Source of the DNA: Candidatus Uhrbacteria bacterium
Lineage (GTDB): Bacteria; Patescibacteriota; Patescibacteriia; UBA9934
Direction: 5' to 3'
DNA: 55,732 nt
NCBI GenBank assembly: GCA_943359325.1
Contig: CALRHD010000005.1
Span: forward strand, 1 to 55,732
Position numbers and translations under genes: made by a program
The notes under the pieces: model-generated
Databases searched by the model: none
What the model saw: the letters and a program-made list of their open reading frames with translations, nothing else
Told to the model about the DNA's origin: nothing
In this document: positions 36,901 through 55,594 of the stretch, piece by piece
Position numbering within the stretch: the first letter of the stretch is position 1
Layout of the letters: the number at the start of each line of letters is the position of its first letter

Positions 36901-39900
36901 TCGCACCGACGTCACGATAAGCGGCAGTAACTATGATGGGTGGTTTAGAAATGGCGGCGATGATTTCTGCTACGGCACATGTACTGAGGGCGGCAACGCG
37001 TGTTCGAGCGACGCCGATTGTGGCAGCGGCGATTCGTGCAATACGGAGCAGGGCTCGTATGTGATTGGCGGCGACCAGTCCGGCATTTGGAATAACGGCG
37101 ATGCGGCGTATGGCGGGTGGGTCGGGAGTTGTGACGAGCAGTATAGCGGCTGCACAGAGTTCCAGGATTTGCTCGATATCGCCGAGGGTGATGTGTACGG
37201 AGCGGTCGACGGTGAGTCGTATTTCTACCTTGATAATTCGTCGCTCGAAGAAAGCACGCTTGCCGATGCACAGCGTTGCAATGGGCAGGCAAGTCAAAAA
37301 GCAGGCTGTGCGCTGTTCCACGACACAACCGACAGCAGCACCACGTCGAACATGAGTGCGACGTACGTTGCGAGTCAGCATGCCGACGCGCTGTTTGGTG
37401 ACGATCCATTCTCGCTTGTCGATCCTGTTGACTGCAGCAGCACGAGCGCGTCGACGATTACTGCCACGAACGGCACAAGTATTGACTTGTGTGCACAGCG
37501 TTGTGCATATCCGACCGCCGACGTGAACGACCTTACCGATCCGTCAGGAACAGGCAGTGTGTACGGCGCATCGTGTTACGAGGGCAATGACTGTGCGCCA
37601 ATTTTGAGCGAGGCAGGTGAGTATGTCGACGCAACCTGCGATACGAGTGACGACGTGACGCGTCTCGAAAACGACGCAAACCGCGTGGTGAAAGTGAACC
37701 GCGACCGCCAGTGCAGCGAATGGTTGACGTGTTCAGATACGCAAACGGTGTGGGACGAAGCAAGCAACAAATTCAAAACTGTGTGTGGCGACGTGTCGCT
37801 TTGCAACGAATATTCCGCGAGCGGCAATGCGTCGTTCTGCTCGTCGCCCGTTGCCGACAGTGTTGCAACAATCATCGACAGTGATCGCTACAGCGGTCGT
37901 GATGTGTCGTGGTATGGCGACGATTATTCTGGCTACGCCATTCCCGATAGTTTCCCGGTTGAACTTTTGACGCAAGTGTTGACGTCGCCACCCGCGGGGT
38001 TGTGCGACAACTCAGGTGCGATCAATTACGACGGTACGCCATTCGACTTCACCACGAGCACGGTGCATGGCACGGAGTGTGATATTGATACCGACTGCGA
38101 CGATGGCGCGAACCCTGATGCAGTCACCGGAGAAACATGCACGTTGAGTACCGAAACAGAAACATATGCGCTTACATTTAATGCGGGAAGCTGTACGGAA
38201 AGTTATGGTGTGAGTTGCACTATCGGCTACTGCGAAAACACGGGTGAGGCATGTGCAGCACAGGCAGAATGCGGCACTGACGCAGGCGACTGTGTGACGG
38301 GCATTTGCTATGACGTCGATACGGCGTCAACATGTACCGTCGACAGTCAGTGCAACAGCGGCTTCTCGTGCTTGAGCGGGACGTGTGTTGACGAAAAAGG
38401 ATCGCTTCCCGTTGAAGATGCAACATGTGCCGATGCAGGCTATACCGCACGTGTGGGAACATTGACGCTGTACCAAAGTGTGCTCGCAAAACTCGGCACC
38501 TGTGTGCGAGAGAGTTGTTTGTTGACGCAAGATGGCCAGCCGTTCGACGTGACGAATGAAGAAACGAAACTTTGTCGTGCGCATCCCGAAGCGAATAGTC
38601 CATTCCCGAACGAAGTGGTCGAAGAATGGAAGTACATTAAAAATTCTGATGCGCCAGCAGGTGTATGGAACGGTACGTCGTCAACAACGAGTGACGTGGC
38701 CGAGATTGACTCCGATACGATAGGCGGTTCGGCTTCGGCAGCGTTCAGTACATTGTCGGGCTTTGGGAATGTCCAATTGTGTAGCCCGAACGAAGATTGT
38801 TCGTGCTCATATAAAAAAATCACATACGGAGACAGCGGCGATACGAAGTTTTTGGCGCTCGACTCGTCGCTCGACGAAAACCTGATAGGCGTGTGCAATG
38901 GTGGCGATTTCAATGGTGCATTTTGCAGTTCTTCGGCGACGTATTATGGGGCGTCGGAGAACCATATCGGCAATGAGGTGGTCAACGAAACAACGTGCAC
39001 AGGCGGTGAAGGGGTTTGCAACTACCCCACACGTTCCGACGCGTTGCTTGGTATGGACGGCTATTGTTTGGAGCACGATACTGCAACAAATATTCACGGA
39101 AATCGCGACGCCGACCACCGTGCGTGTCTCACATGGTTGCCCGTCGACCAGCTTGTGGGTTCCACGGATTTGCATGCGAAGTATAAGAGTGCAGGCTTCT
39201 TTGGTGATACCTACGCTTGCGTCGAAACACGGCCGTATGTGGACCTACCAATTAGCAATTATGGGTCAAATCCTGGAGATACCGCATGTGCAGAATTGAA
39301 CGATAGTGCGGCTGGTTGTGATGCGGGGGAAGATTGGACGAGTCACCTGACAAGTTGCGCAGAAAATGTGGTTTGTCCTGAAAACTATTTCGCCATTTTG
39401 GGCGCGTGTTCATGGGATGACGCTACGTCAGATAACACCCTTGCAGATTCGTGTGTTGATGCGGGATACAACGACTGCCCTTACGTTTGCGTTCCAGAAG
39501 ATGCGCATACGCCAGAGGGCGGAGATTGTAATCCTGCAGACGCGGATAATGATGGAATTGCCGATAACTATGATCTGCAAACGAGAAGTGGGAGTGGTAC
39601 GCTCGTATATGGATGGGTAAACGGCGCGTTAAGCGACGTTGAGCCTTCAAATACAGATTATCAGGCATTCGACGATGTCATCACAGGGGTTTACAAAGAG
39701 TGTGTTGCAAAAGGCGTGCAAATAGATGCGAATAATGTTGATAGTGATATCCTGGATTTTCCAGGAACGAATGAAACTACCGCAGGCCCCGATGAGGCGT
39801 ATAGATATTTGAGCATGACGCAAAAATATAGCGTTGATATATATCCTGCGTGCAAAATATTGTTACGCGTTACCGATGACGATCAAGGGTTTGCGTGGAC

Positions 39901-41158
39901 TGATAAGATTTATAATGCGGCGCGTGCAGTGGAAAATGCGATTTCGACTACAGTCACTGGTTTGGCATACCGAAACCTAACCCTTCCTACGCCGTTCGGT
40001 GTGAGCGGTCTTGATCCGAATAATCTTTCGGAATCGAGTGCAGAACCCGCACCGCCCGCAAAAGTGGCGACATGTCACAATCAGAGTCGTGATTCCTTCG
40101 AACTTCCAACCGACGATGATGGTGACGGTGTATTCGACGATTGCGATGACTCAAGCACCACAAACTTTTCTGGTACGGGGAATGACCCCGCTGCTCCAGA
40201 TGCACGTTCTTTCGTCGACTATATTCTTGATTATTATGCAAGAACTACTTCGTATCAAGGAATTTGGAGTACGGATCCGACGACAACACTTTTTGCAAAT
40301 TTGCAACAAGTATTTGCGCGTCCGGCCTTAGATGACGATTATGCGTATTCATGGACAGGAAATTTGGATACATCAAGTAATCGTCGATACGTTGCGGGTA
40401 GCACGTCGACATACTCAACATACGACTCCCGCGCGGAGAGTGGCGAACCGCCAAAGGTGTGGTCGCTCGATTTAGCGAACTGCGAGGGGGATACGTGTGA
40501 AGAGGGCAACGAGGGGAGTTTGACGCTCAACTCGACGGATAATGGCGAGCAAACGGGGAGTGCGTTTTTCCGCGCGTACCTCAAGTTTTATGCTGCGGCG
40601 AACGAGAATCAATTGCCACTTCGCCGCGTCATCGTTGACTGGCAGGACGGTGGGCAGATGACAGGCTCGACCGCGTCAACAAACTACTACAAAAATCATC
40701 GTGGGTTGCAAACAGGCAGCACGTCGTCGATTTGTAATACCGCTTCGACGAGTCCGTTGTATCGTTGGGGCATGAATAGTGAAAGCTGCGACAGCGACTA
40801 CTTCAGTTACAGTAATATCTACACGTGCACAGAAGGCAACATTGCGACGTACGACAGCTGTACGTACGACACGAACGGCAACGTGACGAACAGCCCATGT
40901 ACAGACGGCACATCGTGTGTGTACCGACCACGCGTCCACTTAGAGGACAACTGGGGCTGGTGCTCGGGGGTGTGTGAGGAAGGCACTTCCCGCGACGATG
41001 ACGACTCGACGGGGTGTTTTGTGGGGGCGACGCGACCGGTGCTGGATTCTGGAAATGATATAGATAGTGAGTGTGGTTATCTTAGACATCCATTAGAGTC
41101 ACTTGGTGAAGTAGACCCATGGGTGTACTACGACGGCGCAATTGTGGTGACGCCATAA
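30920..41158 (+). CDS. Giant (3,412 aa) secreted Cys-rich surface protein with two CBM/galactose-binding-like jelly-roll modules and an Ala/Tyr/Asp-rich central segment
   Basis: A single uninterrupted ORF. N-terminal signal: KKFLLGFMLGVLLLVQGLAFMPERVFA-Q. NPSFEDD..W..VWVDDLQLEQGE and LFEDGDLTNW..FYVDNITLRQGE are CBM4/9-like. Has TSP3-like DxDxDG motifs. Every other-frame ORF across this span is short. Confidence 0.92.
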   Translation: MPIRSHKKFLLGFMLGVLLLVQGLAFMPERVFAQNQSNTVTDAPRLAEYGITHGVTEPTKMSLVGAIFTAIVNLLTFAANRLAYDAAVMLASGGADEQPLIEFRSPEAFFADYTSAVAGEAIGQLNAINASNGVLTNFNLCAPDAQIILALKLGIKSSFRRPEPRCDFNEVKTNWKGFLAQVAVDNPSDLIKNEVILLQLKDAFDPQVNQFSVGLQLYSDILGQSKLNADIFTSKLLMNGPTKDVVDVITGNVKTPASMIDYAYNDSAAKAKDVDFEIAKTVLQNTDTLLQVGVSMLSVFANTLLSSLTDRLYTGLFDFNTPTADPFDAGMFTSSNRAQAQQRFQSILSVAPLEVTNYNVLADFSSCPSNARGLYNCVVDTSFVTAVARASAGVPMTLSEAVDDGLIDSSWPLISSTDSARDQDPYCYTYGFCHSNLVKLRKARIISIGWELAAESGGTSTNDPVTLQEVMDGFYDCNTVGELDANHPWCKLIDPDWVLKYPDTQCRQLVYGQLTESAAAATRKQECVDSPSCIDEDSDGNCTGGYGYCVREANVWNFRGDACPEYAASCLTFTDPQRDDASYLLNTVDYGTCDEGNAGCLWYATQKEEQTDGTFAWPTVDSIETADAESDAYKNRLYLTAQVSDCDEENGRCSELVERDNDLRLNAIVNPSFEDDAETDGVADAWTYSGTDVAYDTSGTYSLHGDDAVNPGASALYETGITMEQGRTYTLSYYARQEDGGTGEESSILIAFDNDDTTEAIDVRGTAYSGDCALYGSARNILEVTGTPSSTTYERYTCTLTSPILANRGDQLFAYVRVNPANVWVDDLQLEQGEDASAYHEGYSTSDLSTTVVKVPPAYLGCTGNADTDSAGCANYAAVCLETEVGCTQYSPSNGDPDVFGITDDNDVCPSACVGYDTFKQEATLYEPNGDFPVYFIPSTAEECSAEEVGCDEFTKLDDESLAYFTYVRACLTTSQADANTGGDQSATFYTWEGSDLDGYQLKTWNLMESNMDGYTTATYTTSGLAETNPGHAPCTSWTTNGSGVTCDDDVLSAIGDFDTDSSDCDEHDDIFSNPSCREFYDTDGNIHYRDWSLTVTVNNACTSYRKTDLVGLGDDADSDGTDDGNENCTQSGGYFDAVTNECRYYGFADESVTCDESAHGCRNYTGGRSRNSSIVLEELFEDGDLTNWDAPSAIDVTYSNESIATDGHSLASTGKAVWTYLYDKGTACAEEDGCAAATTGTLGGNCTVENGAQYCGTIIDTLVQDKTYTLTFWAKGTGDITAGFALDAVPDVTTFARTDAVFDTVTLSTSSWQKYTLGPLNISSDRYETFGDNTVLAFIPESGVTFYVDNITLRQGEDNITLIKDSWVTPASCDEAADGTASPQYYLGCQEYVTQDGDIANVSSFSALCREEVVGCDDFFATHESESPYAQVYGATCATPDGLPVATATDCYRDAGESSDVVTAEVEAAAAASTSTMSVDDAAALVSSTYSTLQFSAVQTAVGDALSAIDGSAAAQAAYDAAYAAYIASDEYAAYQDALDAYDAAVALAAFTPAQEAYDAAQTTYDAALAVYTAAQSVYDAAVAAAGTATTSTDAATALANAQAAEATAHATLIAAADANDAALVILNVARVAWSNDVLLTPFDHSDEDHALAAAYYAAVATYNAGGTADAYNTANAAYTAAQELTVAAQAFYDASATLDAADAAQTSAYDAAHALDLAMQEAKRRFDAAPTDAGLESAYEFAYDAYWYGPELAAYLASQTAYNTAADDYEIAYTAYQDAADAVVSSGYSDATDTFDAAQAIYDDALAAYNDAQATYDIAVAAYAAFLADVEADDAAEAAAAAEAASEESGVDYSTASYDTTSPYLCTIGVGEASCSFDVDYYIPRSTFIDAQAHLSYGPSTHIVSADTSQFLVVNDDVTCSTAEAGCTELGLPTFSADRQNISASTSVYLINDPASYADILCNHEDLFCQAYDTENKGTFYFKDPVDQTCEYRTDVTISGSNYDGWFRNGGDDFCYGTCTEGGNACSSDADCGSGDSCNTEQGSYVIGGDQSGIWNNGDAAYGGWVGSCDEQYSGCTEFQDLLDIAEGDVYGAVDGESYFYLDNSSLEESTLADAQRCNGQASQKAGCALFHDTTDSSTTSNMSATYVASQHADALFGDDPFSLVDPVDCSSTSASTITATNGTSIDLCAQRCAYPTADVNDLTDPSGTGSVYGASCYEGNDCAPILSEAGEYVDATCDTSDDVTRLENDANRVVKVNRDRQCSEWLTCSDTQTVWDEASNKFKTVCGDVSLCNEYSASGNASFCSSPVADSVATIIDSDRYSGRDVSWYGDDYSGYAIPDSFPVELLTQVLTSPPAGLCDNSGAINYDGTPFDFTTSTVHGTECDIDTDCDDGANPDAVTGETCTLSTETETYALTFNAGSCTESYGVSCTIGYCENTGEACAAQAECGTDAGDCVTGICYDVDTASTCTVDSQCNSGFSCLSGTCVDEKGSLPVEDATCADAGYTARVGTLTLYQSVLAKLGTCVRESCLLTQDGQPFDVTNEETKLCRAHPEANSPFPNEVVEEWKYIKNSDAPAGVWNGTSSTTSDVAEIDSDTIGGSASAAFSTLSGFGNVQLCSPNEDCSCSYKKITYGDSGDTKFLALDSSLDENLIGVCNGGDFNGAFCSSSATYYGASENHIGNEVVNETTCTGGEGVCNYPTRSDALLGMDGYCLEHDTATNIHGNRDADHRACLTWLPVDQLVGSTDLHAKYKSAGFFGDTYACVETRPYVDLPISNYGSNPGDTACAELNDSAAGCDAGEDWTSHLTSCAENVVCPENYFAILGACSWDDATSDNTLADSCVDAGYNDCPYVCVPEDAHTPEGGDCNPADADNDGIADNYDLQTRSGSGTLVYGWVNGALSDVEPSNTDYQAFDDVITGVYKECVAKGVQIDANNVDSDILDFPGTNETTAGPDEAYRYLSMTQKYSVDIYPACKILLRVTDDDQGFAWTDKIYNAARAVENAISTTVTGLAYRNLTLPTPFGVSGLDPNNLSESSAEPAPPAKVATCHNQSRDSFELPTDDDGDGVFDDCDDSSTTNFSGTGNDPAAPDARSFVDYILDYYARTTSYQGIWSTDPTTTLFANLQQVFARPALDDDYAYSWTGNLDTSSNRRYVAGSTSTYSTYDSRAESGEPPKVWSLDLANCEGDTCEEGNEGSLTLNSTDNGEQTGSAFFRAYLKFYAAANENQLPLRRVIVDWQDGGQMTGSTASTNYYKNHRGLQTGSTSSICNTASTSPLYRWGMNSESCDSDYFSYSNIYTCTEGNIATYDSCTYDTNGNVTNSPCTDGTSCVYRPRVHLEDNWGWCSGVCEEGTSRDDDDSTGCFVGATRPVLDSGNDIDSECGYLRHPLESLGEVDPWVYYDGAIVVTP

Positions 41159-42250: not shown

Positions 42251-42291
42251 ACCCCATTCGCTTTCACGAATGGGGTTCTCGATTTTTACGC

Positions 42292-43245: not shown

Positions 43246-43276
43246 CAACACTCGGCACTGGCAGTGCCGAGTGTTG
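43246..43276. repeat. REP-like palindrome, copy 2 (TCGG/CCGA variant), 5' flank of the Y1 transposase
   Basis: CAACACTCGGCACTG-G-CAGTGCCGAGTGTTG, with perfect 15-nt arms. Confidence 0.9.
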
Positions 43277-43342: not shown

Positions 43343-43924
43343 ATGCGCGACATTACTTTTGGGACAGGAGAGTACTATCATGTTTACGTGCGGGGTGTTG
43401 ATAAGAGGAATATGTTTATGGATGACGTCGACCGACGGCGTTTTCTGGCAACGATGCAGAAGGCGAATATCATCGACGATCAATGCCGAGTGGCTATTAT
43501 AAGCTTCGTACTCATGTCGAATCACATACATTTGCTCTTGCGGCACGAGAGGAGCGATGGAGTACCCGCATTCATGCAACGTTTACATAATTCGTACGCA
43601 AAGTATTTTAACAAGCGTCATGATCGCGAGGGGCATCTTTGTTCGTCGAAGTATAAAGCAAAGCACATTGACTCTGACGCTTATTTTCTTCACCTCACAC
43701 GGTATATCCACAAAAATCCTTTATCTTTGCGCGGAGTGACGTCACGAACATTGGAGGAATATCGATGGTCGAGCTATCGACATTACCTGGGTTTTGAGCG
43801 TCAACCATTTGTTGACGCGGAGGCAGTGCTGGGGGACTTCAAAGAGCAGGGGTCATACCGTGCGTTCATGAACATCAGATTGCATAATGATGTTATTGAA
43901 CCTTATCTTTTCAATGAGGAGTAG
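43343..43924 (+). CDS. HUH/Y1 transposase-like protein (REP-associated tyrosine transposase-like)
   Basis: YYHVYVRG, FVLMSNHIHLLLRH (HUH), GHLCSSKYKAK, LTRYIHKNPL (Tyr motif), YRWSSYRHYLG. Confidence 0.82.
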   Translation: MRDITFGTGEYYHVYVRGVDKRNMFMDDVDRRRFLATMQKANIIDDQCRVAIISFVLMSNHIHLLLRHERSDGVPAFMQRLHNSYAKYFNKRHDREGHLCSSKYKAKHIDSDAYFLHLTRYIHKNPLSLRGVTSRTLEEYRWSSYRHYLGFERQPFVDAEAVLGDFKEQGSYRAFMNIRLHNDVIEPYLFNEE

Positions 43925-43940: not shown

Positions 43941-43970
43941 CAACACTCGGCACTGTCAGTGCCGAGTGTT
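43941..43970. repeat. REP-like palindrome, copy 3, 3' flank of the Y1 transposase
   Basis: CAACACTCGGCACTG-T-CAGTGCCGAGTGTT. Confidence 0.9.
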
Positions 43971-44756: not shown

Positions 44757-44787
44757 CAACACTAGGCACTGACAGTGCTTAGTGTTG
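44757..44787. repeat. REP-like palindrome, copy 4 (TAGG/CTTA variant)
   Basis: CAACACTAGGCACTG-A-CAGTGCTTAGTGTTG. Confidence 0.85.
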
Positions 44788-45288: not shown

Positions 45289-47076
45289 ATGTCGGTTGCA
45301 CTCCCGCGGAGTCACATGTCACGTTCACTCTACATCTACATCACGTTCGGCTTCATGGCTGTGGTGATGCTCTCAATCCAATCTTGTTGCGGCGACATTT
45401 GCCAGTTGGAGCGCGAGGCAGCGGCCAACAGGTACGGCGGCGGGCAGGACGCGATTACGATCGACTTGCCGTTCGACGTCGGTTACACGGCGCAGTGTGT
45501 GCAGGGTGCGAACGGGAGTTATTCTCACCGTTACACTTCGACCCGCTACGACGCCGACTTCGACACGCCGAACAATGTGCGTGACCCAGTCTACGCGCCG
45601 GTCGACGGTGTTGCATACGTTCATGACACCGACCGCACGACCAATTTCGGCGTGCACATCAACGTCGACATGGGCGACGGTACGTACGTCATTCTCGGCC
45701 ACCTCGACCAAGTGTTTGTTGACGACGGTAGTGACGTCGCAGCAGGGCAATTGCTCGGGTTCGAGGGCACGACGGGTGCGTCGACGGGCGATCATGTGCA
45801 TATGGGGCGACACGATGGCGATGCGTCGAAAGACGGCCGGTATGGCACGTCGATCGCTGGCCTCATGCTCAACGTCGACGACGTGACGGGGTCGCGGCAG
45901 GCGGCTGTGTCGACCTCCGACCTCGTGTGTAGTTTGACAAGCGGGCATCAGTACGCCTCGCTCCTGACGACACCGCGATGGCACCCCGACGGCAGTCTTG
46001 TGAAGACGCCCGAAGAAAGTACGGTGTACGTCATCGAAAGCGGCAATGCGCGACCATTCGTGGACGAAGCATCGTTCTGGAGTCGTGGCTACGACTTCGG
46101 CGACGTTGCACTTGTGAGCGACAATGAGCTCGGGTGCTTCGGTGCGGGCAGTACGGTGAGTGGCAACGCGGACGTTGGTGCGGTGTATGACCGCGGCGTC
46201 GTGTGGCTCGTCGTCGACAATGGCGGCGGCACTGCGCTGCGGCATCGCGTGGCATCAACAGGTTGGCAGGGCGTTTTGAAGTCGTGGGGCATTGTTGCCG
46301 CGACGTACGACGATCTTCCCACTGCGTCGACGAACGCAGCGTTCACTGCTTCGGGCGAAGCGACAGGTGCGGATTTCCGCGATGGCAGCCTCGTTTCCGA
46401 AGTGTCGTCGAGCACGGTGTACGTCATGAGTGGCGGCATCGCCATGCCCATCGAAACGTGGGACGACTACCTGCTGCTCGGATTCGAAAACCGTACGGTG
46501 ATCGAAGTCGACGACGGCGTGGTTGGTGCAATCATGGGTGCAGTCGGCGATTGTGGCATGAATGCGTATTGCGTGACGCGCAGTGACATCGTGATGTGCG
46601 GCGGGCCTTCGGGCGACGACGAAGGAACGTACCCCGACGGTGACGTGGGTGGTGTCGACACAGGTGCGGCAACACGCACAGAGGATTCGGGTGCCACTGA
46701 AGACTCTGCACCTGTCGGAGAAGGCGGACTCGTCGTGACGTGGTCGACATCGTCGGGCGCTGCAGCCGACCGTATCACACTCTCGGGGGAATATTCCCAC
46801 GAAAGCGGCTGGAGCGAAGGCTGGCAAACGCTTGGCGAAAGTCGAGGGTTACCATACTTCTCCTACGAAGTCATCGATGCCGAAGCGGGCGACGCACTTC
46901 GCTTTTCGGTGGAGTTCGTCGAAGGGTCAAACACGTCGTGGTCGTGCCTCGCGCCATTCCCTCCCGGAACGGTGCAGGGAAACGTCACCGCAACGTATCG
47001 CGGCAGCGCAGTCAGCGTCGCGGCCGTCGACGACCCGTCGAGCAACGGGTGCGGACTTTCGATCATCGTGCCATAG
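45289..47076 (+). CDS. M23-family metallopeptidase (LytM-like peptidoglycan hydrolase) with a long C-terminal extension
   Basis: SHRYTSTRYDADFDTP..VYAPVDGV matches the H..D motif region, and GTTGASTGDHVHMG is the HxH motif. Has an N-terminal TM (LYIYITFGFMAVVMLSI). The start is uncertain: ATG at 45289 or 45316. High GC3. Confidence 0.85.
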   Translation: MSVALPRSHMSRSLYIYITFGFMAVVMLSIQSCCGDICQLEREAAANRYGGGQDAITIDLPFDVGYTAQCVQGANGSYSHRYTSTRYDADFDTPNNVRDPVYAPVDGVAYVHDTDRTTNFGVHINVDMGDGTYVILGHLDQVFVDDGSDVAAGQLLGFEGTTGASTGDHVHMGRHDGDASKDGRYGTSIAGLMLNVDDVTGSRQAAVSTSDLVCSLTSGHQYASLLTTPRWHPDGSLVKTPEESTVYVIESGNARPFVDEASFWSRGYDFGDVALVSDNELGCFGAGSTVSGNADVGAVYDRGVVWLVVDNGGGTALRHRVASTGWQGVLKSWGIVAATYDDLPTASTNAAFTASGEATGADFRDGSLVSEVSSSTVYVMSGGIAMPIETWDDYLLLGFENRTVIEVDDGVVGAIMGAVGDCGMNAYCVTRSDIVMCGGPSGDDEGTYPDGDVGGVDTGAATRTEDSGATEDSAPVGEGGLVVTWSTSSGAAADRITLSGEYSHESGWSEGWQTLGESRGLPYFSYEVIDAEAGDALRFSVEFVEGSNTSWSCLAPFPPGTVQGNVTATYRGSAVSVAAVDDPSSNGCGLSIIVP

Positions 47077-47208: not shown

Positions 47209-49422
47209 ATGGACGTCGCGTCTATCTTTGCGTTTTTTTTGCGCGTGATCCGTCGGCACAAAGCTGTGCTCGTGGAAGGTTTTTGTGTTTTGACGGTGTG
47301 TGTTGGGGTGCTTGGCGTGTCGCACGGCGTGTTTGCTGCCCCTGAGGAAATAGTTGACTCCGCAGCACTTGGTCAAGGCGCCATAGACCAGCTCGTCAAT
47401 CTTGTTGCGCAATTCTTCAACTGGATCGCGACAGCCATTGGCCAGTTGATTCTCGTGCTCATTGGGATGATCCTTATTCCTATTCTGCATTACGACGGGT
47501 TTTCCTCAAGTTACATTGTCGGTCTTGGTTGGGCATTGACGCGTGACATTGTAAACATGTTCGTCGTCATCGTGCTCCTCGTTATTTCTGTTCTCACCAT
47601 TGTCGGCAGCCCAAAAGCAAACTGGCAGCAGCAAATTCCGCGGCTGTTCATTTACGTCATTGCCGTCAACTTCAGTCGTACTATTTGTGGATTTCTTATC
47701 GACATCGGGAACATTATCATGTTCCAATTTGTCAACGCACTTGTAGAAATCGGTGCTGGCAATTTTGCACAATTGTTAAAATTGAATGCAGTGGGCGACT
47801 ATACATCAGACCTCACGAAAGGCGTTCATGCATGGCAAAACCTTGGCGCCTCGTGGTTGCAGGTCGCACTCATGACCATGGTCCTTGCCGTTATCGGCAT
47901 CCTCGTTATCGTCATGCTCTACCGCATCGTCTTTTTGTGGGTGCTTATTATTCTTTCGCCTGCCGCATTCTTTTTGGGCGGCATCAAAGACGTTTTTTCG
48001 CAGGCCGGCAGTGCATACGGTGAATGGTGGAAGAAATTTACGTCCGCGATTATCTTGGGTCCGATTCTTACATTTTTCCTGTGGCTTGCGCTTGCAGTTT
48101 CGGCAAGCGGCGACATTGTCACAAAAGAAAACTTCCCCGTTGGCACTACGGAAAACGTCAGCGGACTTGTGCTCAAGGCATTCGACATTTCACAGATGAC
48201 GGGGCTTTTGCTCGGTCTTGTGCTTCTTGTCGTTGGCATGCAGCAAGCGTCTTCTGCCGCAGGTGCCATGGGCGGGCTTGCCGCAAAATTCGTGAACGAA
48301 GGCACGGGTGCATCCCTTGCAAAAGCCAGTCTCAAATGGCCATCGACATTTGGGCGTGGAGCATCTGCAGTAGGTAGCGGGGCGTATAAAACTGCAAATT
48401 ACATCGCGCCCGAAACAACCGCAGCACTCACCGCGTCAACATTACAGGGTGTTGGCAAACTTCAGTCAAAGGCGGGAACGGCATTGAGCAGCTCCCCATT
48501 GGCAGCGATTCCCGGAGTGGGTTACGTCGGCAGAAAAGTTTCCGAACGTGGAAACAAAACATATGCTGCGGGCGAACATATGAGCGAAGAAGAAACAAAA
48601 AAGGCGCAGGAAGGGTTCAAAAATGCGCCGGAAGAATACAAGCAAAAAATGTATCACTCTATGGCAACTGGCGGCAGGGCGCACGAGTCGCTTACTGCAA
48701 CGCAGCAGCAGGTGTTACGTCTGGGTTTGGCAACAAGTTTGAGGGATCAAAAGAATGTAGAAGAGAAGTTGAAGCCGGAGGAATACGAAAAACTCATGGC
48801 AAAGGTCATGAAAGAGACGCAACACGATGCAGACAATGGCCATTTGGACGATGCACAGAAAAAAGCATTCGAAGGCACAAAAACAAAACACATCGATATT
48901 CTTTTGGAGACGGACACTGCTGCAGCACAAAAGCATATTGACTCTGAAGACTTTAATCCTGCGCTTATTCGTAAGCGTGCTCTTGAAGGAAAGCCTGACG
49001 CTGCAGGGAACATGAGTGATGCAGCGATGGCGAGTCTTAATACGGTACGCAAGAGTCTCGATGGTCGCGTTATGCGTGTGACTGATGACGGCAAAGAAAT
49101 TACGGCACTTCATGAAGCGGCTAGTCATAGCGCCACAAGGCAATCAACAGGTCGCGGTGCTGCACGGGCTCCGAGTACGCCAAGTGGCATCCCTGTATAT
49201 GCAGGGAGCGAGGATCCTCGTGTGAAAGAAGCAAAAGCAAAGGCAAGAGCGGCAGCTGCTGCAGCGGGGACACCTCCAGCGCCGAGTGTGCCACCACCTC
49301 CTCTACCACCGGCTCGGCCTGCACCGCCACCTTCACCAACACTTCCTACTCCTCCATCCGCGCCACCTCCACTTCCACGTCCACGGCCGGGGACTATCCC
49401 GCCGTCAGGAGGAACACCATAG
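47209..49422 (+). CDS. VirB6/TrbL-like polytopic membrane protein with a long hydrophilic C-terminal half and a poly-Pro tail
   Basis: Signal-like N-terminus, then 6 or more TM segments (LILVLIGMILIPIL, MFVVIVLLVISVLTIV, LFIYVIAVNF, VALMTMVLAVIGILVIVML, WVLIILSPAAFF, AIILGPILTFFLWLALAV, LLLGLVLLVVG). C-terminal tail: PPAPSVPPPPLPPARPAPPPSPTLPTPPSAPPPLPRPRP. The assignment rests on topology and on its position upstream of PrgI/VirB4. Confidence 0.55.
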   Translation: MDVASIFAFFLRVIRRHKAVLVEGFCVLTVCVGVLGVSHGVFAAPEEIVDSAALGQGAIDQLVNLVAQFFNWIATAIGQLILVLIGMILIPILHYDGFSSSYIVGLGWALTRDIVNMFVVIVLLVISVLTIVGSPKANWQQQIPRLFIYVIAVNFSRTICGFLIDIGNIIMFQFVNALVEIGAGNFAQLLKLNAVGDYTSDLTKGVHAWQNLGASWLQVALMTMVLAVIGILVIVMLYRIVFLWVLIILSPAAFFLGGIKDVFSQAGSAYGEWWKKFTSAIILGPILTFFLWLALAVSASGDIVTKENFPVGTTENVSGLVLKAFDISQMTGLLLGLVLLVVGMQQASSAAGAMGGLAAKFVNEGTGASLAKASLKWPSTFGRGASAVGSGAYKTANYIAPETTAALTASTLQGVGKLQSKAGTALSSSPLAAIPGVGYVGRKVSERGNKTYAAGEHMSEEETKKAQEGFKNAPEEYKQKMYHSMATGGRAHESLTATQQQVLRLGLATSLRDQKNVEEKLKPEEYEKLMAKVMKETQHDADNGHLDDAQKKAFEGTKTKHIDILLETDTAAAQKHIDSEDFNPALIRKRALEGKPDAAGNMSDAAMASLNTVRKSLDGRVMRVTDDGKEITALHEAASHSATRQSTGRGAARAPSTPSGIPVYAGSEDPRVKEAKAKARAAAAAAGTPPAPSVPPPPLPPARPAPPPSPTLPTPPSAPPPLPRPRPGTIPPSGGTP

Positions 49423-49449
49423 CCCTCATTTGGGAGGAACGTTTGCGTT

Positions 49450-50982
49450 ATGGCACTTGTCGATTTAATGAAATATGAGATGTTCGCGAAGTTCCGCGGA
49501 AGGGAGGAGACGTTTGACTTCATGGATGGGCTGACGAGTCGTCATGACATTCCTTCAGAGCGCTGGAAAGAACTTCTCGACCTTACCGACGCCGTGTATG
49601 ATGGCGTCATTGAGGTTAAAGAGATTCCGGAGCTTTTGGCTCAGGCATTTGGTTTGGATGAAGCGAAGGCAGCGAAGTTGGCGCGCGACCTCGTGGCAGT
49701 GCAGTTGCTGCCCATGAAAGACGTTATGCCAGGGCTTGCGGAACAGATAGCAACATGGGGTGGTATGACTCCGCCGGCAAACGACGCGCCGCAAACATTC
49801 GATGAGTACGCTGATTCGTTGGCGCAGCGTACAAATGTCACGCTGACGTTTCAACATGCAAAGCGTTTGGCGACGCTCGTGAAAAGTTATCTTGACGGCA
49901 AAAAAACGCGCGACGATGTGATGCTGCTCTTGCAGCGACCGATTGTTGTCGGCGGGTTGGGGTTGACGCAAGAACAAGCGGCGGCGATGTTGCAGACTGT
50001 GGATGAGGAAAAAACAAAAATAAAAGTGGATAACTATGTGGGCGGCTCAGGTGCCCACATCAGTGGCGGTGACGTGGTAGCGAGTGCGATTGAGATTGTG
50101 CCATCGCACGAAGTTGCAAAGGAGACGCCCGTGGCGGCAGGAAAGAAACTGAAGGTGGAGAGTCCTGATGCAACGTCGAACGATCCCGTGCTTGAAGTAG
50201 CCGTAGCAGTCGCAGTGAATGCTGCGGCAGCGACGCTTGCAGAAAAACGCATTGCGAAAAAGGCGTTTGGTGATCTAGCGCGCATGGCAATTCGCGGCGT
50301 TCGCGATCCGTACCAAACGCGGAGTATTATTGAACGTGATTATAAAGTCGACGGCGAACCGCTCTTGTTGTTGATTGAGGCGATTATGGCGGGGATGGAA
50401 ACGTATCATGGAAAGGAAAGAGGTTCGGCGAATCCCCCTCCTTTGGAAGCGGGGGCAGGCGAACCGCGGGTGAGTGCGGCGAGGACGCTCGAAGAAGAGC
50501 GTGCGGAACAAGCAGCGAAGGTGACGCCCGAGCAATTGGCGGCAGTAGCGGAGGCGTCGAAGCCGGAAAAAGCGCACGCAATGTTGACCGTGGGGAGCGT
50601 TGTGCCACAAGCGGCAGGAGAAGTGCCGATTGTCACGGACATTCAGGCAACGCGGAGGCTTGTAGGGCCAGTAGAAGAGTTGGGCACGATGACGCCTGTC
50701 GAATTCCGTCGACTTTCTTCGAGTGCCGACGAGGCTGCACGCAAAATTGAGGACTTACTTCACGCACTTGAGGCAACGTCGTACGACGACCGCATTCGTG
50801 GCATTCAGGCGTGGCGGAAAAGTCCGATGTGTGTGCTGTATGCGCAAATGGCAAACGAAGCGTTGAACAACGGCATTGCGATGAGCGAAGTTGCAGCCCG
50901 ACGTCGTAACAAGGGCGACGAAAGTTTGAGTCCCGCAGAACTCGTGGCGGTTGCGACGTTGAATGCAAAAATTCGTTTTTGA
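49450..50982 (+). CDS. Hypothetical protein within the T4SS-like operon
   Basis: 510-aa ORF with GGGAGGA upstream. No recognisable motif. Co-directional and tightly spaced with its neighbours. Confidence 0.6.
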   Translation: MALVDLMKYEMFAKFRGREETFDFMDGLTSRHDIPSERWKELLDLTDAVYDGVIEVKEIPELLAQAFGLDEAKAAKLARDLVAVQLLPMKDVMPGLAEQIATWGGMTPPANDAPQTFDEYADSLAQRTNVTLTFQHAKRLATLVKSYLDGKKTRDDVMLLLQRPIVVGGLGLTQEQAAAMLQTVDEEKTKIKVDNYVGGSGAHISGGDVVASAIEIVPSHEVAKETPVAAGKKLKVESPDATSNDPVLEVAVAVAVNAAAATLAEKRIAKKAFGDLARMAIRGVRDPYQTRSIIERDYKVDGEPLLLLIEAIMAGMETYHGKERGSANPPPLEAGAGEPRVSAARTLEEERAEQAAKVTPEQLAAVAEASKPEKAHAMLTVGSVVPQAAGEVPIVTDIQATRRLVGPVEELGTMTPVEFRRLSSSADEAARKIEDLLHALEATSYDDRIRGIQAWRKSPMCVLYAQMANEALNNGIAMSEVAARRRNKGDESLSPAELVAVATLNAKIRF

Positions 50983-51020
50983 TAAAACGTGCAAAGAGAA
51001 AAGCATGATACAATGTATGT

Positions 51021-51461
51021 ATGGCAGGGCGTAATCAATACGTTGTTCCGCAATTCCTCGATGTCGAGGCGAAAATTATCGGGCCGGTGACGGCGCGACA
51101 GTTTTTGATTCTTCTTGCGGTGTTGCTTATCGAGTTTATTATCTACCGTGTATTTTTGAGTCTTTTCGCCATTCTCGGTCTGGGGATTCCTGTGCTCGCC
51201 CTTGGACTCATCTTTGCGTTTTTTCGCGTCAACGGGCAGCCGTTTCATTTTATTGCGCTCAATGTTGTGCAGACACTTCGCCGCCCTGCGCTTCGTGTGT
51301 GGGACAAAACACTTTCCGACGCTGATCTTCGTGTGTTTCTTAAAAAAGACGACAAACCGTTGCCGCCACCGCCGACACGCAAAGCGCCATTGTCGAGCTC
51401 GCGACTTTCTGAATTGACGCTCGTTGTGAACACGGGTGGCGTCTACGATCCAGAAGAATAA
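51021..51461 (+). CDS. PrgI-family (VirB3-like) small membrane protein
   Basis: YVVPQFLDVEAKIIGPVTARQFLILLAVLLIEFIIY matches the PrgI N-terminal signature (vP..id.e.ki.gplT.rQ), followed by two TM segments. Confidence 0.72.
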   Translation: MAGRNQYVVPQFLDVEAKIIGPVTARQFLILLAVLLIEFIIYRVFLSLFAILGLGIPVLALGLIFAFFRVNGQPFHFIALNVVQTLRRPALRVWDKTLSDADLRVFLKKDDKPLPPPPTRKAPLSSSRLSELTLVVNTGGVYDPEE

Positions 51462-51464
51462 TCT

Positions 51465-52154
51465 ATGCAATCCAAAAAACTTGCTAAGGCAAAAGCGGGG
51501 CCGTCGACGCAACGGTTCCTCGACATCGCGGAGATTCGCGAAAATGTTGTTGTCCTCAAAGACGGCACCATGCGCGCCGTTATGATGTCGTCGAGTATTA
51601 ACTTTGCGTTGAAGTCGGAAGATGAGCAGCAGGCGATTGTGCAAGGGTACATGCAATTTTTGAATGGCCTCGAGTATCCTATAGAGATTGTTATCCAGTC
51701 GCGAAAAATGAACATCGACGGCTATCTCGACCGCCTCAAAAAACAAGAAGATACGATTGCCAACGAACTCTTGAAGTCGCAAATTCGTGACTACACGTCG
51801 TTCATCACAGAGCTCGTAGAGTTGGGCGAAATCATGCAAAAGCGATTTTTTGTCGTCGTGCCGTTCGACCCCGTCACGGACAAATCGCAAAAGAACTTCA
51901 TGGCGAAAGTTTCTGCTGCAATTGCACCTGCGTCACTCATCCGGCTAAACGATAAAGTATTTAATACTCGCCGAGAATCGTTGCAGCATCGTGTCGACAC
52001 GGTTGCAGGGGGGTTGTCGAGCATGGGGTTGCAAGTCGTGCAACTTGATACGCAGGGACTTATTGAACTTTACTACACCGTGTACAACCCCGACCTATTC
52101 GATAACGAAAAAATGGCGGACGTGAATGCGTTGCGAGTGGAAACTAAGTTTTAG
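51465..52154 (+). CDS. VirB4/PrgJ-like N-terminal domain protein, a separate ORF
   Basis: TQRFLDIAEIRENVVVLKDGTMRAVMMSSSINFALKSEDEQQAIVQGYMQFLNGLEYPIEIVIQSRKMNID. This pattern forms the N-terminus of single-chain Gram-positive VirB4 homologues (Tn916 Orf16 / PrgJ type). Confidence 0.65.
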   Translation: MQSKKLAKAKAGPSTQRFLDIAEIRENVVVLKDGTMRAVMMSSSINFALKSEDEQQAIVQGYMQFLNGLEYPIEIVIQSRKMNIDGYLDRLKKQEDTIANELLKSQIRDYTSFITELVELGEIMQKRFFVVVPFDPVTDKSQKNFMAKVSAAIAPASLIRLNDKVFNTRRESLQHRVDTVAGGLSSMGLQVVQLDTQGLIELYYTVYNPDLFDNEKMADVNALRVETKF

Positions 52155-52160
52155 TTCGAT

Positions 52161-52290
52161 GGCGTTCGTTTGACTCAGAACATTCCTTGCACTCCACCTG
52201 CTGCGCTACGCCGTTCACGACTTGTAAACTCGTCGACGGCTGTGCGACAGACGTTACGTGCAAAGAATGTTCCGAGTCTGACGAACGCAC
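52161..52290. repeat. Long imperfect palindrome, family B, copy 2 (130 nt), filling the gap between the two VirB4 ORFs
   Basis: ggcgttcgtttgactcagaacattccttgcac ... gtgcaaagaatgttccgagtctgacgaacgcac. Confidence 0.8.
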
Positions 52291-52299
52291 AACCCACTT

Positions 52300-54222
52300 A
52301 TGGCATTTGACGTAAAAAATCTCGCGGCACAGGAACGGATTCCGCAGTCGGAAAAACCGAAACGCCCGCCGAGCGAAAAAGAACTGAAGGCTGCGGAAGA
52401 ACGCACGACGCTCGAAGAAGAGCGTGTGTATCGTCGCGGCATTGTTTCGGTGCGCGACCTCATTGCTCCTGCAGCGTTCCAGATTTTTCCGAATTATTTG
52501 TTGCTTGGTGAAACGTATGTCCGTACCATGTTTGTGACGACGTATCCGCGCTACCTCGGACTTGGGTGGGGTTCGCCGATTATTAACTACAACGGCACAC
52601 TCGACATTGCGATGTTTTTTTACCCTGTAAAGCCGGAAGTTATTTTGAAGCAGCTGAAAAATAAAGTTGGCGTGCTTGAGGCGCAATTGACCAGTGACAA
52701 CGAAAAAGGTGCCCCGCGCGACCCGATTCGCGAAACTGCGCTTCGCGACATTGAGCAGCTGCGCGACGACTTGACGCAAGGCATTGAACACTTTTTTCAG
52801 TTTGCATTTTACGTCAGTATTTACGCGAAGAGCAAAGAGGAGCTCGACAAACGTTCGGAACAAATCGAGTCAATTTTTGGCGCAAAACTTATTTATAGCA
52901 AGCGCGGGTTTTACCAAGCCGAGCAAGGGTTCAATTCTACGATGCCGCTCGGCAACGATGAACTCATGATTACGTTCAACATGAATACGTCGCCGATTGC
53001 GTCGTCGTTTCCGTTTACGTCGAGCGACTTGACCAGCGACAACGGTATTCTGTATGGGATTAATCGTCACAACAATTCTCTCATTCTTTTTGATCGCTTC
53101 AGTTTGCAAAATGCGAATGCGGTGGTGTTTGCAACGTCGGGTGCAGGAAAGTCGTATACGGTGAAGCTTGAAATTCTCCGTTCGCTCATGATGGGCATCG
53201 ATGTTATTGTTATTGACCCGGAAATGGAATACCGCCATTTGTCGGATGCGGTCGGTGGAACATACGTCAACGTATCGCTTGCGTCGGAGGCAAAAGTCAA
53301 TCCGTTTGACTTGCCGCGGGCGAAGGGCGAAGAAACGTCGACCGAAGACATTTTGCGGTCGGCAGTCATAACGGTGAAGGGACTGATGCGGATCATGATC
53401 GGCATGCCGCAGGGCGAAAAAGGTCATCTTGGTTTTACGCCCGAAGAAGATTCGCTGCTCGACCGTGCGCTGCTCGAAGCGTACGCAAAAAAAGACATCA
53501 CGCCTGACTTGCCGTCACTCGAAGGTGTGACATATCCCGTGCTGCAGGATTTGCAGGATGTGCTCGAAGGTATGGAAGGTGGTGCGTCGCTTGTTGCACG
53601 GCTACTCAAATTTACCGAGGGCACGTTTGCGGGACTACTCAATTCTCCGACAACGGTGGAAATGCGCAATCAACTTGTTGTTTTTTCTGTTCGGGACTTG
53701 GAGGACGAGCTGCGGCCAATGGGGATTTATAGCATCATCAACTACATTTGGAATGTGGTGCGGAGTGAACGAAAAAAGCGCATTCTCGTTATTGATGAAG
53801 CATGGTGGTTAATGCAAAATGAAGACTCGGCGAAATTTATTTTTGCACTCGTGAAACGGGCACGAAAATATTATTTGGGTGTTACAACCATCACGCAGGA
53901 CGTCAACGACTTTTTAACGTCGTCGTATGGGCAAGCTATTGTGACGAACTCGTCGCTTCAACTGCTGCTCAAGCAATCGCCCGCCGCGGTCGATTTGATT
54001 GCTACCACGTTCAACCTCACACAGAGCGAAAAGTATTTGTTGCTCGAATCTGCAGTCGGCGAAGGTATTTTCTTTGCAGGGCAAAAACATGCAGCAATCA
54101 AAGTTGTCGCGTCGTACACCGAAGATCAGATTGTCACCACGAATCCGCAGCAACTTCTCGAAATTGAACAGGCAAAACGTAACTTCGACCGTTCGCTCAC
54201 CGACGCAACGAAAAAAACTTAG
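52300..54222 (+). CDS. VirB4/TraE/PrgJ-type T4SS ATPase (C-terminal ATPase portion)
   Basis: IAPAAFQIFPNYLLLGETYVRTMFVTTYPRYL, Walker A FATSGAGKSYT, Walker B RILVIDEAWWLM, and TTITQDV. Confidence 0.9.
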   Translation: MAFDVKNLAAQERIPQSEKPKRPPSEKELKAAEERTTLEEERVYRRGIVSVRDLIAPAAFQIFPNYLLLGETYVRTMFVTTYPRYLGLGWGSPIINYNGTLDIAMFFYPVKPEVILKQLKNKVGVLEAQLTSDNEKGAPRDPIRETALRDIEQLRDDLTQGIEHFFQFAFYVSIYAKSKEELDKRSEQIESIFGAKLIYSKRGFYQAEQGFNSTMPLGNDELMITFNMNTSPIASSFPFTSSDLTSDNGILYGINRHNNSLILFDRFSLQNANAVVFATSGAGKSYTVKLEILRSLMMGIDVIVIDPEMEYRHLSDAVGGTYVNVSLASEAKVNPFDLPRAKGEETSTEDILRSAVITVKGLMRIMIGMPQGEKGHLGFTPEEDSLLDRALLEAYAKKDITPDLPSLEGVTYPVLQDLQDVLEGMEGGASLVARLLKFTEGTFAGLLNSPTTVEMRNQLVVFSVRDLEDELRPMGIYSIINYIWNVVRSERKKRILVIDEAWWLMQNEDSAKFIFALVKRARKYYLGVTTITQDVNDFLTSSYGQAIVTNSSLQLLLKQSPAAVDLIATTFNLTQSEKYLLLESAVGEGIFFAGQKHAAIKVVASYTEDQIVTTNPQQLLEIEQAKRNFDRSLTDATKKT

Positions 54223-54225
54223 TGT

Positions 54226-54768
54226 ATGTCTCGAAAAACCGAAGTCATTATCGCGATACTTGTCCTCGTGTTGCTCGCCATCCTTTTATTCTTTTTGTGG
54301 CCGAGGGGAAGGGAAGCGCCAGATGCCAACACCAAGAATCAAGGTGGAGGTGCAGAGAATACCGACGACGCAGTAGCAATCGAGGAACCCGCGTTGCCAC
54401 AGCACGCAACGCCGAATACGGTCGCACGTATTTTTGTGGAACGGTTTGGGAGTTATTCCACAGAAACCGACTACGCAAATGTGGATGATGTGATGCCGAT
54501 TGCGACGTCGTCGCTACAAAAGCGACTACAGACACTTGCCGAAGAAGCACGGCGTGCGGTTGCGGGGAGCTATTATGGCGTGTCGACGAACGTCATCAAG
54601 GTCACTGTGGAGTCGCAAACGGATGCGGCGGCAACACTGCTTGTAAAAACGCAGCGCGAGGAAGCGTTCGACAGCCCAGGGAATACGTCGGTGCGATATA
54701 CCGATATTCGTGTGGAGTTTGTGAAGGTGGGTGAGGATTGGTTTGTGAACGATTTTTCGTGGCTATGA
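54226..54768 (+). CDS. N-terminally anchored small protein, possibly VirB8/PrgL-like (NTF2-like)
   Basis: One TM (VIIAILVLVLLAILLFFLW), then a ~120-aa domain with the pattern FVERFGSYS..VIKVTVESQ..TLLVKTQRE..VEFVKVGEDWFVNDFSW. The assignment is by size, position and pattern only. Confidence 0.45.
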   Translation: MSRKTEVIIAILVLVLLAILLFFLWPRGREAPDANTKNQGGGAENTDDAVAIEEPALPQHATPNTVARIFVERFGSYSTETDYANVDDVMPIATSSLQKRLQTLAEEARRAVAGSYYGVSTNVIKVTVESQTDAAATLLVKTQREEAFDSPGNTSVRYTDIRVEFVKVGEDWFVNDFSWL

Positions 54769-55436
54769 CGACAGGCACGGCATTAACGCGGGGGATGGCG
54801 TTGCTTGGCGACGCACTCTTTCCGCGTTTTTGCGTTGGCTGCACACGTGAGGGGAAGATTTTGTGCGACGTGTGTAACGAGGTGTGGATAAGTATGTCCA
54901 CGACTCAGTTGCGGACATCAGAAGTTTGGACGTTTGGCGTGTACGCAGACCCTGTTTTGCGGGGTTTGTTGACGACATGGAAGTATCACTTCGACGACAC
55001 GGCGTGGGCGGTGTTACGTCGTCGATTGCAGCCGCAAATGTCGTTGTTGCACCTTCGCGCCGCAATGGCGGGCGTTGAGGCGGTCGTGCCTGTCCCACTT
55101 TCTCGGCGACGCCGCGCCGAACGAGGGTTTGATCAAGCGGTGGAGATTGCAGAGTGGATTGCTGCGGGCATCCATCGCCCCGTTCTTCACCTCCTCGAAC
55201 GAAAGCACGTCGACGGCCACCAAGCGGAACGCACCATCGACGAACGTATCACTGCCATGCACGACAATCCTTTTTCCATAAAAGCTTCAAAAATGGCCGA
55301 TCGGCAAAAAATGAAGCCGACCCATGTTCTCCTCGTCGATGACGTCTGGACAACGGGCGCAACTATGCACGCCGCCGCTGAAGTCCTTGTCACACAGGGA
55401 ATTGGGTCGCATTTTGTAACGGTGGCAAAGGGATAA
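54765..55436 (+). CDS. comFC: ComF-family phosphoribosyltransferase-like protein
   Basis: N-terminal Cys cluster FCVGCTREGKILCDVC, then RRRRAERGFDQA and the PRTase motif VLLVDDVWTTGATM. ATGA overlap with the upstream gene. Confidence 0.85.
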   Translation: MTTGTALTRGMALLGDALFPRFCVGCTREGKILCDVCNEVWISMSTTQLRTSEVWTFGVYADPVLRGLLTTWKYHFDDTAWAVLRRRLQPQMSLLHLRAAMAGVEAVVPVPLSRRRRAERGFDQAVEIAEWIAAGIHRPVLHLLERKHVDGHQAERTIDERITAMHDNPFSIKASKMADRQKMKPTHVLLVDDVWTTGATMHAAAEVLVTQGIGSHFVTVAKG

Positions 55437-55504: not shown

Positions 55505-55594
55505 GGAGAGGTGGCCGAGTGGCTTAAGGCACAGGTTTGCTAAACCTGCGTATTCGCAAGAGTACCGGAGGTTCGAATCCTCTCCTCTCCGCCA
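55505..55594 (+). tRNA. tRNA-Ser, anticodon GCU, type II, CCA encoded
   Basis: Acceptor GGAGAGG/CCTCTCC, anticodon stem CAGGT/ACCTG with loop TTGCTAA, a long variable arm, T arm GGAGG-TTCGAAT-CCTCT, G, CCA. Confidence 0.9.

Follow-up and report, generated by a model that had tools for sequence, protein, structure and literature searches.

The 55,732-nucleotide contig CALRHD010000005.1 of the Candidatus Uhrbacteria bacterium assembly GCA_943359325.1 (positions 1 to 55,732, forward strand; hereafter, the window) carries near its 3' end a set of eight co-directional, plus-strand genes, between 45289 and 55436, that resemble the parts of a monoderm type IV secretion system (T4SS). In order, these encode an M23 peptidase, a VirB6-like polytopic protein, an uncharacterised 510-aa protein, a PrgI/VirB3-like protein, a TrsD-like protein, a VirB4 ATPase, a VirB8-like protein, and ComFC, with gaps of 132, 27, 38, 3, 145, 3, and -4 nt from 5' to 3'. 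A preliminary description of this DNA had listed seven tightly packed co-directional genes; all seven open reading frames (ORFs) are present on the plus strand, and the number becomes eight if the M23 gene is counted with them. The rest of the window is occupied by housekeeping genes (valyl-, tyrosyl-, and arginyl-tRNA synthetases, NusA, YidC, GroEL, a release factor, KsgA, and Sua5) and by six tRNAs (ARAGORN, Rfam). The window is thus part of the chromosome of a Patescibacteria (Uhrbacteria-like) bacterium and not a mobile element, and the cluster is, we are confident, a core-genome T4SS of an ABY1/Uhrbacteria patescibacterium that belongs to a published Patescibacteria clade descended from MPF_FATA systems.

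A scan with the 640-aa VirB4 protein against one genome per GTDB species gave 579 confirmed relatives, and the best 80 loci, in which VirB4 is 70-90% identical at the protein level, were kept for comparison; many of these are titled Candidatus Uhrbacteria, Magasanikbacteria, Falkowbacteria, or "Patescibacteria group." When the window proteins were located by tblastn, the order (M23)-VirB6-like-510-aa-PrgI-TrsD-like-VirB4-VirB8-like-ComFC was found to be kept in nearly all 80 loci, with median spacers of 3-25 nt between neighbouring genes, so that the synteny check proposed in the preliminary description came out in favour of conservation. A shared order in nearly all loci, combined with VirB4 proteins that remain 70-90% identical across candidate phyla, indicates a vertically inherited core locus, and this pattern rules out an ordinary integrated conjugative element (ICE).

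Genes of the cluster

The VirB4 ATPase (52300..54222, plus strand, 640 aa) is of the monoderm CD1110/PrgJ type. It matches the NCBIfam model conju_CD1110 at 2.3e-102 (343.6 bits against a cutoff of 325), is also recognised by Pfam P-loop_TraG, AAA_10, and DUF87, and has intact Walker A (ATSGAGKS) and Walker B (ILVIDE, at aa 495) motifs. Its alignment with PrgJ of pCF10 (BLASTP, 2e-36) covers PrgJ aa 222-772, and because it begins only at residue 222, this VirB4 lacks the N-terminal domain. To judge from profile models, it is the TrsD-like gene directly upstream (51465..52154, plus strand, 229 aa) that stands in for this domain: its product matches NCBIfam VirB4_plasma at positions 92-233 (1.7e-10), TrsD/TraD NF041427 (1.4e-5), and CD1110 at positions 12-87, and it carries a precomputed PF26593 TraC-like annotation. 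BLASTP of the TrsD-like protein against PrgJ gave no significant match, and the tie to the VirB4 N-domain is therefore made by the profile models alone.

The preliminary description had treated these two genes as a single VirB4 in two ORFs with intact Walker motifs. The motifs are indeed intact, but there is no split gene. In the window, the TrsD-like gene and virB4 lie in different frames, 145 nt apart, whereas relatives have a median spacer of 3 nt here (also 3 nt in the closest relative); a stop codon separates the two parts in all 76 relatives that have both, with the start of virB4 in any of the three relative frames. A stop codon shared by every one of these relatives marks the junction as a true gene boundary between a TrsD-like gene and a VirB4 without N-domain. 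Both ORFs are full length and are 83-90% identical to their counterparts in the closest relative.

The unusual length of this spacer is explained by an imperfect palindrome of 127 nt (52162..52288; arms at 52162-52223 and 52227-52288) that occupies it and would form an RNA hairpin with a minimum free energy of -66.3 kcal/mol (z=-7.0). The palindrome occurs once in the window and is missing from the closest relative, and is thus an insertion relative to that genome. A role for the hairpin as a T4SS-specific regulator was considered and is unlikely, because long-spacer relatives carry palindromes that are unrelated to it and lie at several junctions of the operon. Six other ABY1 genomes, for instance, have unrelated long palindromes at the trsD-virB4 junction and at other junctions, and another has a 484-nt insert with inverted-repeat ends; together, these look like generic intergenic insertions.

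Two further membrane components are defined by sequence family or by predicted structure. The small PrgI/VirB3-like protein (51021..51461, plus strand, 146 aa) matches Pfam PrgI PF12666 at 1.7e-7 (32.1 bits against a cutoff of 27), which bears out its original identification, and its gene lies directly 5' of the TrsD-like gene in 77 loci. The 180-aa bitopic protein encoded at 54226..54768 (plus strand) has no significant sequence-family match in Pfam or NCBIfam. Its AlphaFold2 (AF2) model, at a predicted local distance difference test (pLDDT) score of 87.8, shows an N-terminal transmembrane (TM) helix, a disordered linker, and an alpha+beta NTF2-like domain, and the best Foldseek matches in the PDB are CagV, TrwG/VirB8 of R388, PrgL, TraH, and TcpC, with E values from 6e-6 to 1e-3. 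In addition, hhalign against PrgL gave E=0.0014, and two of 61 homologues bear the Pfam VirB8 domain PF04335. Structural modelling therefore confirms a predicted VirB8 fold for what had at first been described only as a VirB8-sized anchored protein, and the structure search that had been suggested for it has now been run.

The largest membrane protein of the cluster (47209..49422, plus strand, 737 aa) was classified from its hydropathy, composition, and position. Approximately eight hydrophobic segments in aa 19-342 are followed by a hydrophilic, poorly conserved half of ~400 aa, in which the last 60 residues are 43% proline; the position of the gene is kept in 62 loci, and the invariant residues all fall inside aa 1-343. 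The window protein itself has no Pfam or NCBIfam match. In the TM region of three orthologues, Pfam TrbL/VirB6 is matched below threshold (4.6e-5, 5.8e-4, and 7.7e-4), the orthologue scores of 19.7-23.7 bits falling under the cutoff of 25.9. An hhalign comparison of the family alignment with the single PrgH sequence of pCF10 was uninformative (E=0.11), and the TM half used as a query in a word-indexed search returned only four matches, probably because it was swamped by hydrophobic words; orthologues taken from the related loci served in its place. The gene precedes the PrgI gene, mirroring pCF10 PrgH. On the basis of topology, position, and the sub-threshold TrbL matches of its orthologues, the product is probably an extended VirB6, a class described in a 2025 FEMS review. 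Of the earlier VirB6/TrbL-like label, then, the polytopic architecture and the proline-rich tail stand, and the family match exists only below threshold and in orthologues.

Upstream of the VirB6-like gene lies the M23 peptidoglycan metallopeptidase (45289..47076, plus strand, 595 aa), which matches Pfam Peptidase_M23 at 1.1e-13 as well as NCBIfam peptidoglycan hydrolase models, in keeping with the hydrolase that had been reported immediately upstream. The longest ORF begins at a TTG at 45172, and gene callers use the ATG at 45289. The protein has an N-terminal TM anchor (aa 16-34) and a long non-catalytic C-terminal region, and a homologue stands 5' of the VirB6-like gene in 26 of the 80 loci. 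We consider it likely to be the wall-opening, VirB1-analogous partner of the system.

The gene between those for the VirB6-like and PrgI-like proteins (49450..50982, plus strand) encodes an uncharacterised, all-helical multidomain protein of 510 aa, and occupies this place in 68 of the 80 loci. The statement that it has no recognisable family holds: no match was found in Pfam, in NCBIfam, or to PDB sequences, and Foldseek of its AF2 model against the PDB gave nothing below E=1, a search in which sensitivity is limited by the floppy multidomain model. In the model (mean pLDDT 81.6), disordered linkers connect four helical domains, with modules at approximately aa 1-105, 115-190, and 245-323 and a best-conserved C-terminal domain of ~110 aa (approximately aa 405-510), and the sequence contains weak internal repeats. 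Alignment profiles of this protein and of the VirB6-like and VirB8-like proteins, searched against the PDB, likewise returned nothing significant. The homologues that were found are all hypothetical Patescibacteria proteins, and a profile search over 1.84 billion representatives placed 2,572 clusters at 50% identity in the family. It is a large, unannotated family and a fixed component of the ABY1 locus, newly recognised here, and the protein is probably cytoplasmic. Eleven more distant relatives have a shorter homologue of the 510-aa gene and, between it and the VirB6-like gene, an extra gene for a soluble protein of 310-440 aa, so that this module of the locus consists of one gene in Uhrbacteria-like genomes and of two elsewhere.

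The cluster ends with comFC (54765..55436, plus strand, 223 aa). The product matches TIGR00201 comF at 3.3e-21 (76 bits, against a curated cutoff of 233) and GntX at 2.3e-13, also under its cutoff (both NCBIfam), and has weak Pfam matches to Pribosyltran and DZR_2. Its translation holds a zinc-finger motif, CVGC...CDVC, and the phosphoribosyl pyrophosphate (PRPP)-loop motif VLLVDDVWTTGAT; judged by these motifs, it has both of the features that mark the ComF family, an N-terminal Cys4 zinc finger and a phosphoribosyltransferase-like domain with a PRPP loop. The ATG of comFC at 54765 overlaps the TGA of the VirB8-like gene (54766-54768) as ATGA, exactly as first described, and independent gene calls give the same start. 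The two genes adjoin in 62 loci and overlap in 39 of these 62.

Genomic setting

Pfam scans of the larger ORFs of the window, although not of every ORF, detected no VirD4, relaxase, or integrase, in line with what had been noted at the outset. Neither a relaxase nor a type IV coupling protein (T4CP) is thus found nearby in this 55.7-kb window, and synteny is kept across 80 species, as is expected of a chromosomal core locus. Among the proteins of the cluster, no homologues of VirB7, VirB9, or VirB10 were detected with Pfam or NCBIfam. There is no room inside the operon for a VirB2-like pilin, and none was seen by eye at 41.1-45.3 kb, where no dedicated pilin hidden Markov model was used. Promoter and terminator scans inside the operon gave nothing beyond shuffled expectation. 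GC content across the cluster (47-55 kb) is ~0.49-0.56, within the whole-window range of 0.45-0.61, the maximum of 0.61 being reached over the M23 gene at 45-47 kb.

A tRNA-Ser(gct) gene (55505..55594, plus strand; ARAGORN, Rfam) follows comFC, and the contig ends shortly after it. The exact VirB4 protein is also recorded in GCA_943350455.1, where the contig stops ~300 bp 3' of comFC. The conserved chromosomal context of the tRNA gene is visible in many relatives, in which comFC is followed by tRNA-Ser(gct), tRNA-Ser(tga), a small membrane protein, tRNA-Arg(gcg), a RecG-like gene, and, on the opposite strand, a RadA-like gene; the window ends before the last two, and both were named in the relatives from N-terminal sequence motifs only. 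Because this block of tRNA-Ser, tRNA-Arg, RecG, and RadA is itself conserved, the tRNA-Ser at 55505 is context and not an integration site, and its candidacy as an att site was rejected. The small membrane protein, of 165-175 aa, lies between the tRNA-Ser genes and tRNA-Arg/RecG in six of the relatives compared, is present in many, and carries the motif W(E/Q)(T/V)WEYP…RS..WY.

Upstream of the cluster, an ORF at 30920..41158 (plus strand) encodes a giant, cysteine-rich surface protein of 3,412 aa, with a signal or TM N-terminus, a CBM_4_9 domain at aa 666-753 (Pfam, 1.7e-12), and an Ala/Tyr/Asp-rich repeat region. At least 12 of 62 loci encode homologues of its C-terminal 900-1,500 aa directly 5' of the VirB6-like gene or of the M23 gene. 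In the window, the giant gene and the M23 gene are ~4 kb apart, with unrelated and partly degenerate sequence between them. The recurrence suggests that the giant protein may be a T4SS-associated adhesin and a conserved partner of the system, and a literature search for a link between such proteins and CPR (candidate phyla radiation) T4SSs returned nothing specific.

Relation to known systems and possible role

The closest counterparts of the cluster are already in the literature. A survey of 3,035 Patescibacteria genomes (Quinonero-Coronel et al. 2025, Microb Genom, PMC12102498) describes a monophyletic Patescibacteria VirB4 clade nested in MPF_FATA, with chromosomal loci that include TrsD, PrgI/VirB3, and VirB6, and names the TrsD plus VirB4 arrangement as the commonest T4SS feature of the group. 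In that survey, VirB8 homologues could be detected almost exclusively in ABY1; M23 domains occur in some VirB1-like proteins; relaxases occur in 103 of the 3,035 genomes; T4CPs are rarely near virB4, VirD4 homologues being common but distant from it; and ABY1 loci commonly include comF, recG, and radA. The window agrees with this description at nearly every point: the locus is chromosomal and vertically inherited, has a monoderm VirB4 with adjacent TrsD as well as PrgI/VirB3, a probable VirB6, and VirB8, has an M23-type hydrolase in place of VirB1, has neither relaxase nor T4CP nearby, and includes comF. The ABY1-type context is present as well, in the overlap of comFC with virB8 in the window and in the RecG-like and RadA-like genes downstream in relatives. 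Thus, the cluster, including its comF linkage, reproduces a system that is already known. This copy departs from the published pattern in the 127-nt palindrome between trsD and virB4, and, unlike systems of Saccharimonadia and Microgenomatia with prominent pilin arrays, it has no VirB2-like pilin recognised in or beside the operon. In the searched text of the Patescibacteria T4SS papers, there is no discussion of the 510-aa family or of the giant-protein neighbour.

Comparison with better-studied systems helps to separate what is shared from what is peculiar to the locus. The order VirB6 (PrgH)-VirB3 (PrgI)-VirB4 (PrgJ)-hydrolase/VirB8 (PrgK/PrgL) of pCF10, an MPF_FATA system, is collinear with that of the cluster, the presence of TrsD and VirB4 as successive separate genes recalls trsC-trsD-trsE of pGO1/pIP501, and the 180-aa protein shares its VirB8 fold with PrgL, TraH, and TcpC. 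However, unlike the MPF_FATA conjugation systems, the cluster lacks a relaxase, a T4CP (PcfC), an adhesin (PrgB), and a plasmid or ICE backbone; it has an M23 peptidase where PrgK is of the SLT/CHAP type, a probable VirB6 approximately three times longer, an additional 510-aa protein, and comFC as its last gene. The ComB system of Helicobacter pylori, with which the preliminary description had drawn an analogy, is also a T4SS without relaxase or T4CP, and in H. pylori it imports DNA, with ComFC acting downstream on single-stranded DNA. ComB is nevertheless a diderm system with VirB7, VirB9, and VirB10, which the cluster lacks, and comFC is not genetically fused to it; further, because the Uhrbacteria cell is monoderm, there would be no periplasmic intermediate step as there is in ComB. 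The resemblance is one of analogy and not of membership. The archaeal Ced system (CedA/CedB), which imports DNA between cells by means of a VirB4/HerA-like ATPase and no relaxase, is a cited precedent for repurposed importers, but the match to the CedB model is weak here (50 bits against a cutoff of 700), nothing CedA-like is present, and the remaining parts are bacterial homologues of VirB3, VirB8, and, probably, VirB6.

By analogy with these systems, local opening of the peptidoglycan would fall to the M23 hydrolase, and a membrane translocon would be built from the extended VirB6, PrgI/VirB3, and the bitopic VirB8. On the cytoplasmic face, the TrsD-like protein and the N-domain-less VirB4 would supply the energy for assembly and transport, and the 510-aa helical protein may be a lineage-specific cytoplasmic accessory factor. 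The lack of relaxase, T4CP, and integrase suggests that the machine does not serve its own transfer, and it would most likely act at contact with a host cell, in support of an episymbiotic lifestyle. For Patescibacteria, it has been proposed that DNA or other macromolecules are taken in from hosts (PMC12102498). In ABY1, we speculate, the translocon might handle incoming DNA or nucleoprotein, and ComFC might pass the cargo on to recombination or salvage. A DNA-handling role is preferred because the translational coupling of comFC to virB8 is conserved and because recG and radA lie in the neighbourhood, and DNA import in the ABY1 lineage is put forward tentatively.

Several considerations weigh against the identification of the system or its proposed role. 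In the Saccharibacteria member S. epibionticum, the T4SS is essential, yet none of ComEC, ComF, and DprA counts among the fitness genes (Wang et al. 2023, Cell, PMC10633639), which counts against DNA import. The comF linkage has been reported for ABY1 only, so comFC could be hitch-hiking in the operon. A T4CP or relaxase could lie elsewhere in the genome, of which 55.7 kb is visible. The probable identity of VirB6 leans on topology, position, and sub-threshold TrbL matches in orthologues. Substrate and direction of transport in ABY1 are speculative.

A different view of the machine is that of a host-directed effector or contact apparatus that exports proteins, or a VirB2-less surface structure, into or onto the host bacterium, with the giant protein as its adhesin and comFC as a passenger. 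In the S. epibionticum study, the T4SS (SEML1_0006-0019) was essential in epibiotic co-culture, had no recognisable coupling protein or relaxase, and "may instead export proteins," while ComEC was required for transformation and yet, like ComF and DprA, made no contribution to fitness. The recurrent position of giant-protein homologues 5' of the VirB6-like gene and the presence of a wall hydrolase in the cluster fit such an apparatus, and the long, variable, proline-rich hydrophilic half of the extended VirB6 could span the wall. However, the analysis identified no effector, no secretion signal, and no substrate receptor of T4CP type; the giant gene is a neighbour in only part of the loci and is removed from M23 in the window; and the conserved comFC overlap and the proximity of recG and radA would be left unexplained. 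The overlap of virB8 with comFC and the adjacency of the giant gene are, taken as conserved features, compatible with both DNA uptake and cell-cell interaction, and we regard a host-directed apparatus as possible and only slightly less likely than DNA import. A more specific form of the DNA-import proposal, in which the ABY1 T4SS is devoted to importing DNA or nucleoprotein from the host, with ComFC as an obligate hand-off factor, the 510-aa protein as an adaptor that replaces the coupling protein at the VirB4/TrsD base, and the giant protein as a host-contact adhesin, appears improbable; if true, this would be a contact-dependent, DNA-feeding machine of a monoderm and a new functional class among T4SSs.

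Much further behind is the possibility that the cluster is an ICE, or a decaying remnant of one, beside tRNA-Ser, with its mobility genes beyond the window or lost. Homology of the T4SS parts to conjugation genes of pCF10, CD1110, and pGO1, the tRNA-Ser that follows comFC on a contig ending ~300 bp after that gene, and an IS200-like Y1 transposase 1.4 kb 5' of the M23 gene would all suit an ICE. But the same order recurs in nearly all 80 species-level relatives, the downstream tRNA and RecG/RadA block is itself conserved, there is no clean composition island, and relaxases are confined to the 103 surveyed genomes noted above, so that an ICE is highly improbable and the early judgment that this is not a conventional conjugative element holds good, given conserved flanks in relatives and no mobility genes in the window. 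Pseudogenisation of a two-ORF VirB4 in a decaying cluster, which the different frames and the 145-nt gap might have suggested, deserves almost no credence and is refuted by the stop codon at the junction in all 76 relatives. In addition, pGO1-type and Patescibacteria systems are known to encode TrsD separately, both ORFs are of full length, the Walker motifs are intact, and what separates the two intact genes is a discrete palindromic insertion.

The window is therefore a typical ABY1 example and not a new kind of system. The T4SS to which it belongs is near-universal in the Patescibacteria, a phylum that may account for a quarter of bacterial diversity, and is essential in the one member open to genetic manipulation. 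To what was known, the analysis adds structural confirmation, in the form of a model, of the VirB8 fold and the conservation, across dozens of species, of the TrsD/VirB4 boundary and of the virB8-comFC overlap. The 510-aa family, with its more than 2,500 clusters, and the recurrent giant-protein neighbour are concrete candidates for tests of transport.

Other observations in the window and its relatives

Dozens of the records that show CPR T4SS synteny bear the title "uncultured Gammaproteobacteria bacterium" (TPA assemblies, binchicken/SRP co-assemblies). Given the synteny that they share with CPR loci, this title is almost certainly a placeholder or a wrong taxonomic label.

Between the giant gene and the M23 gene, the interval 41189-43188 contains two ORFs. 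One, of 187 aa, has only a weak N-terminal match to Peptidase_M16 and may be a gene fragment; the other, of 298 aa on the minus strand, has a lipoprotein-like signal (…AAIVGC) and matches no family. The Y1 (IS200-like) transposase that follows (43343-43924, 193 aa) is flanked on both sides, at 43249-43273 and 43944-43968, by the 25-nt palindrome CACTCGGCACTG(T/G)CAGTGCCGAGTG, which has further copies in the window at 44760-44784 and 1762-1786 (six matches against zero expected). Transposase and palindromes together resemble a REP/RAYT ("REPtron") arrangement rather than a plain insertion sequence. A second Y1_Tnp ORF, of 283 aa, lies at 21164-22015, and Y1_Tnp homologues adjoin the M23 gene in three of the relatives.

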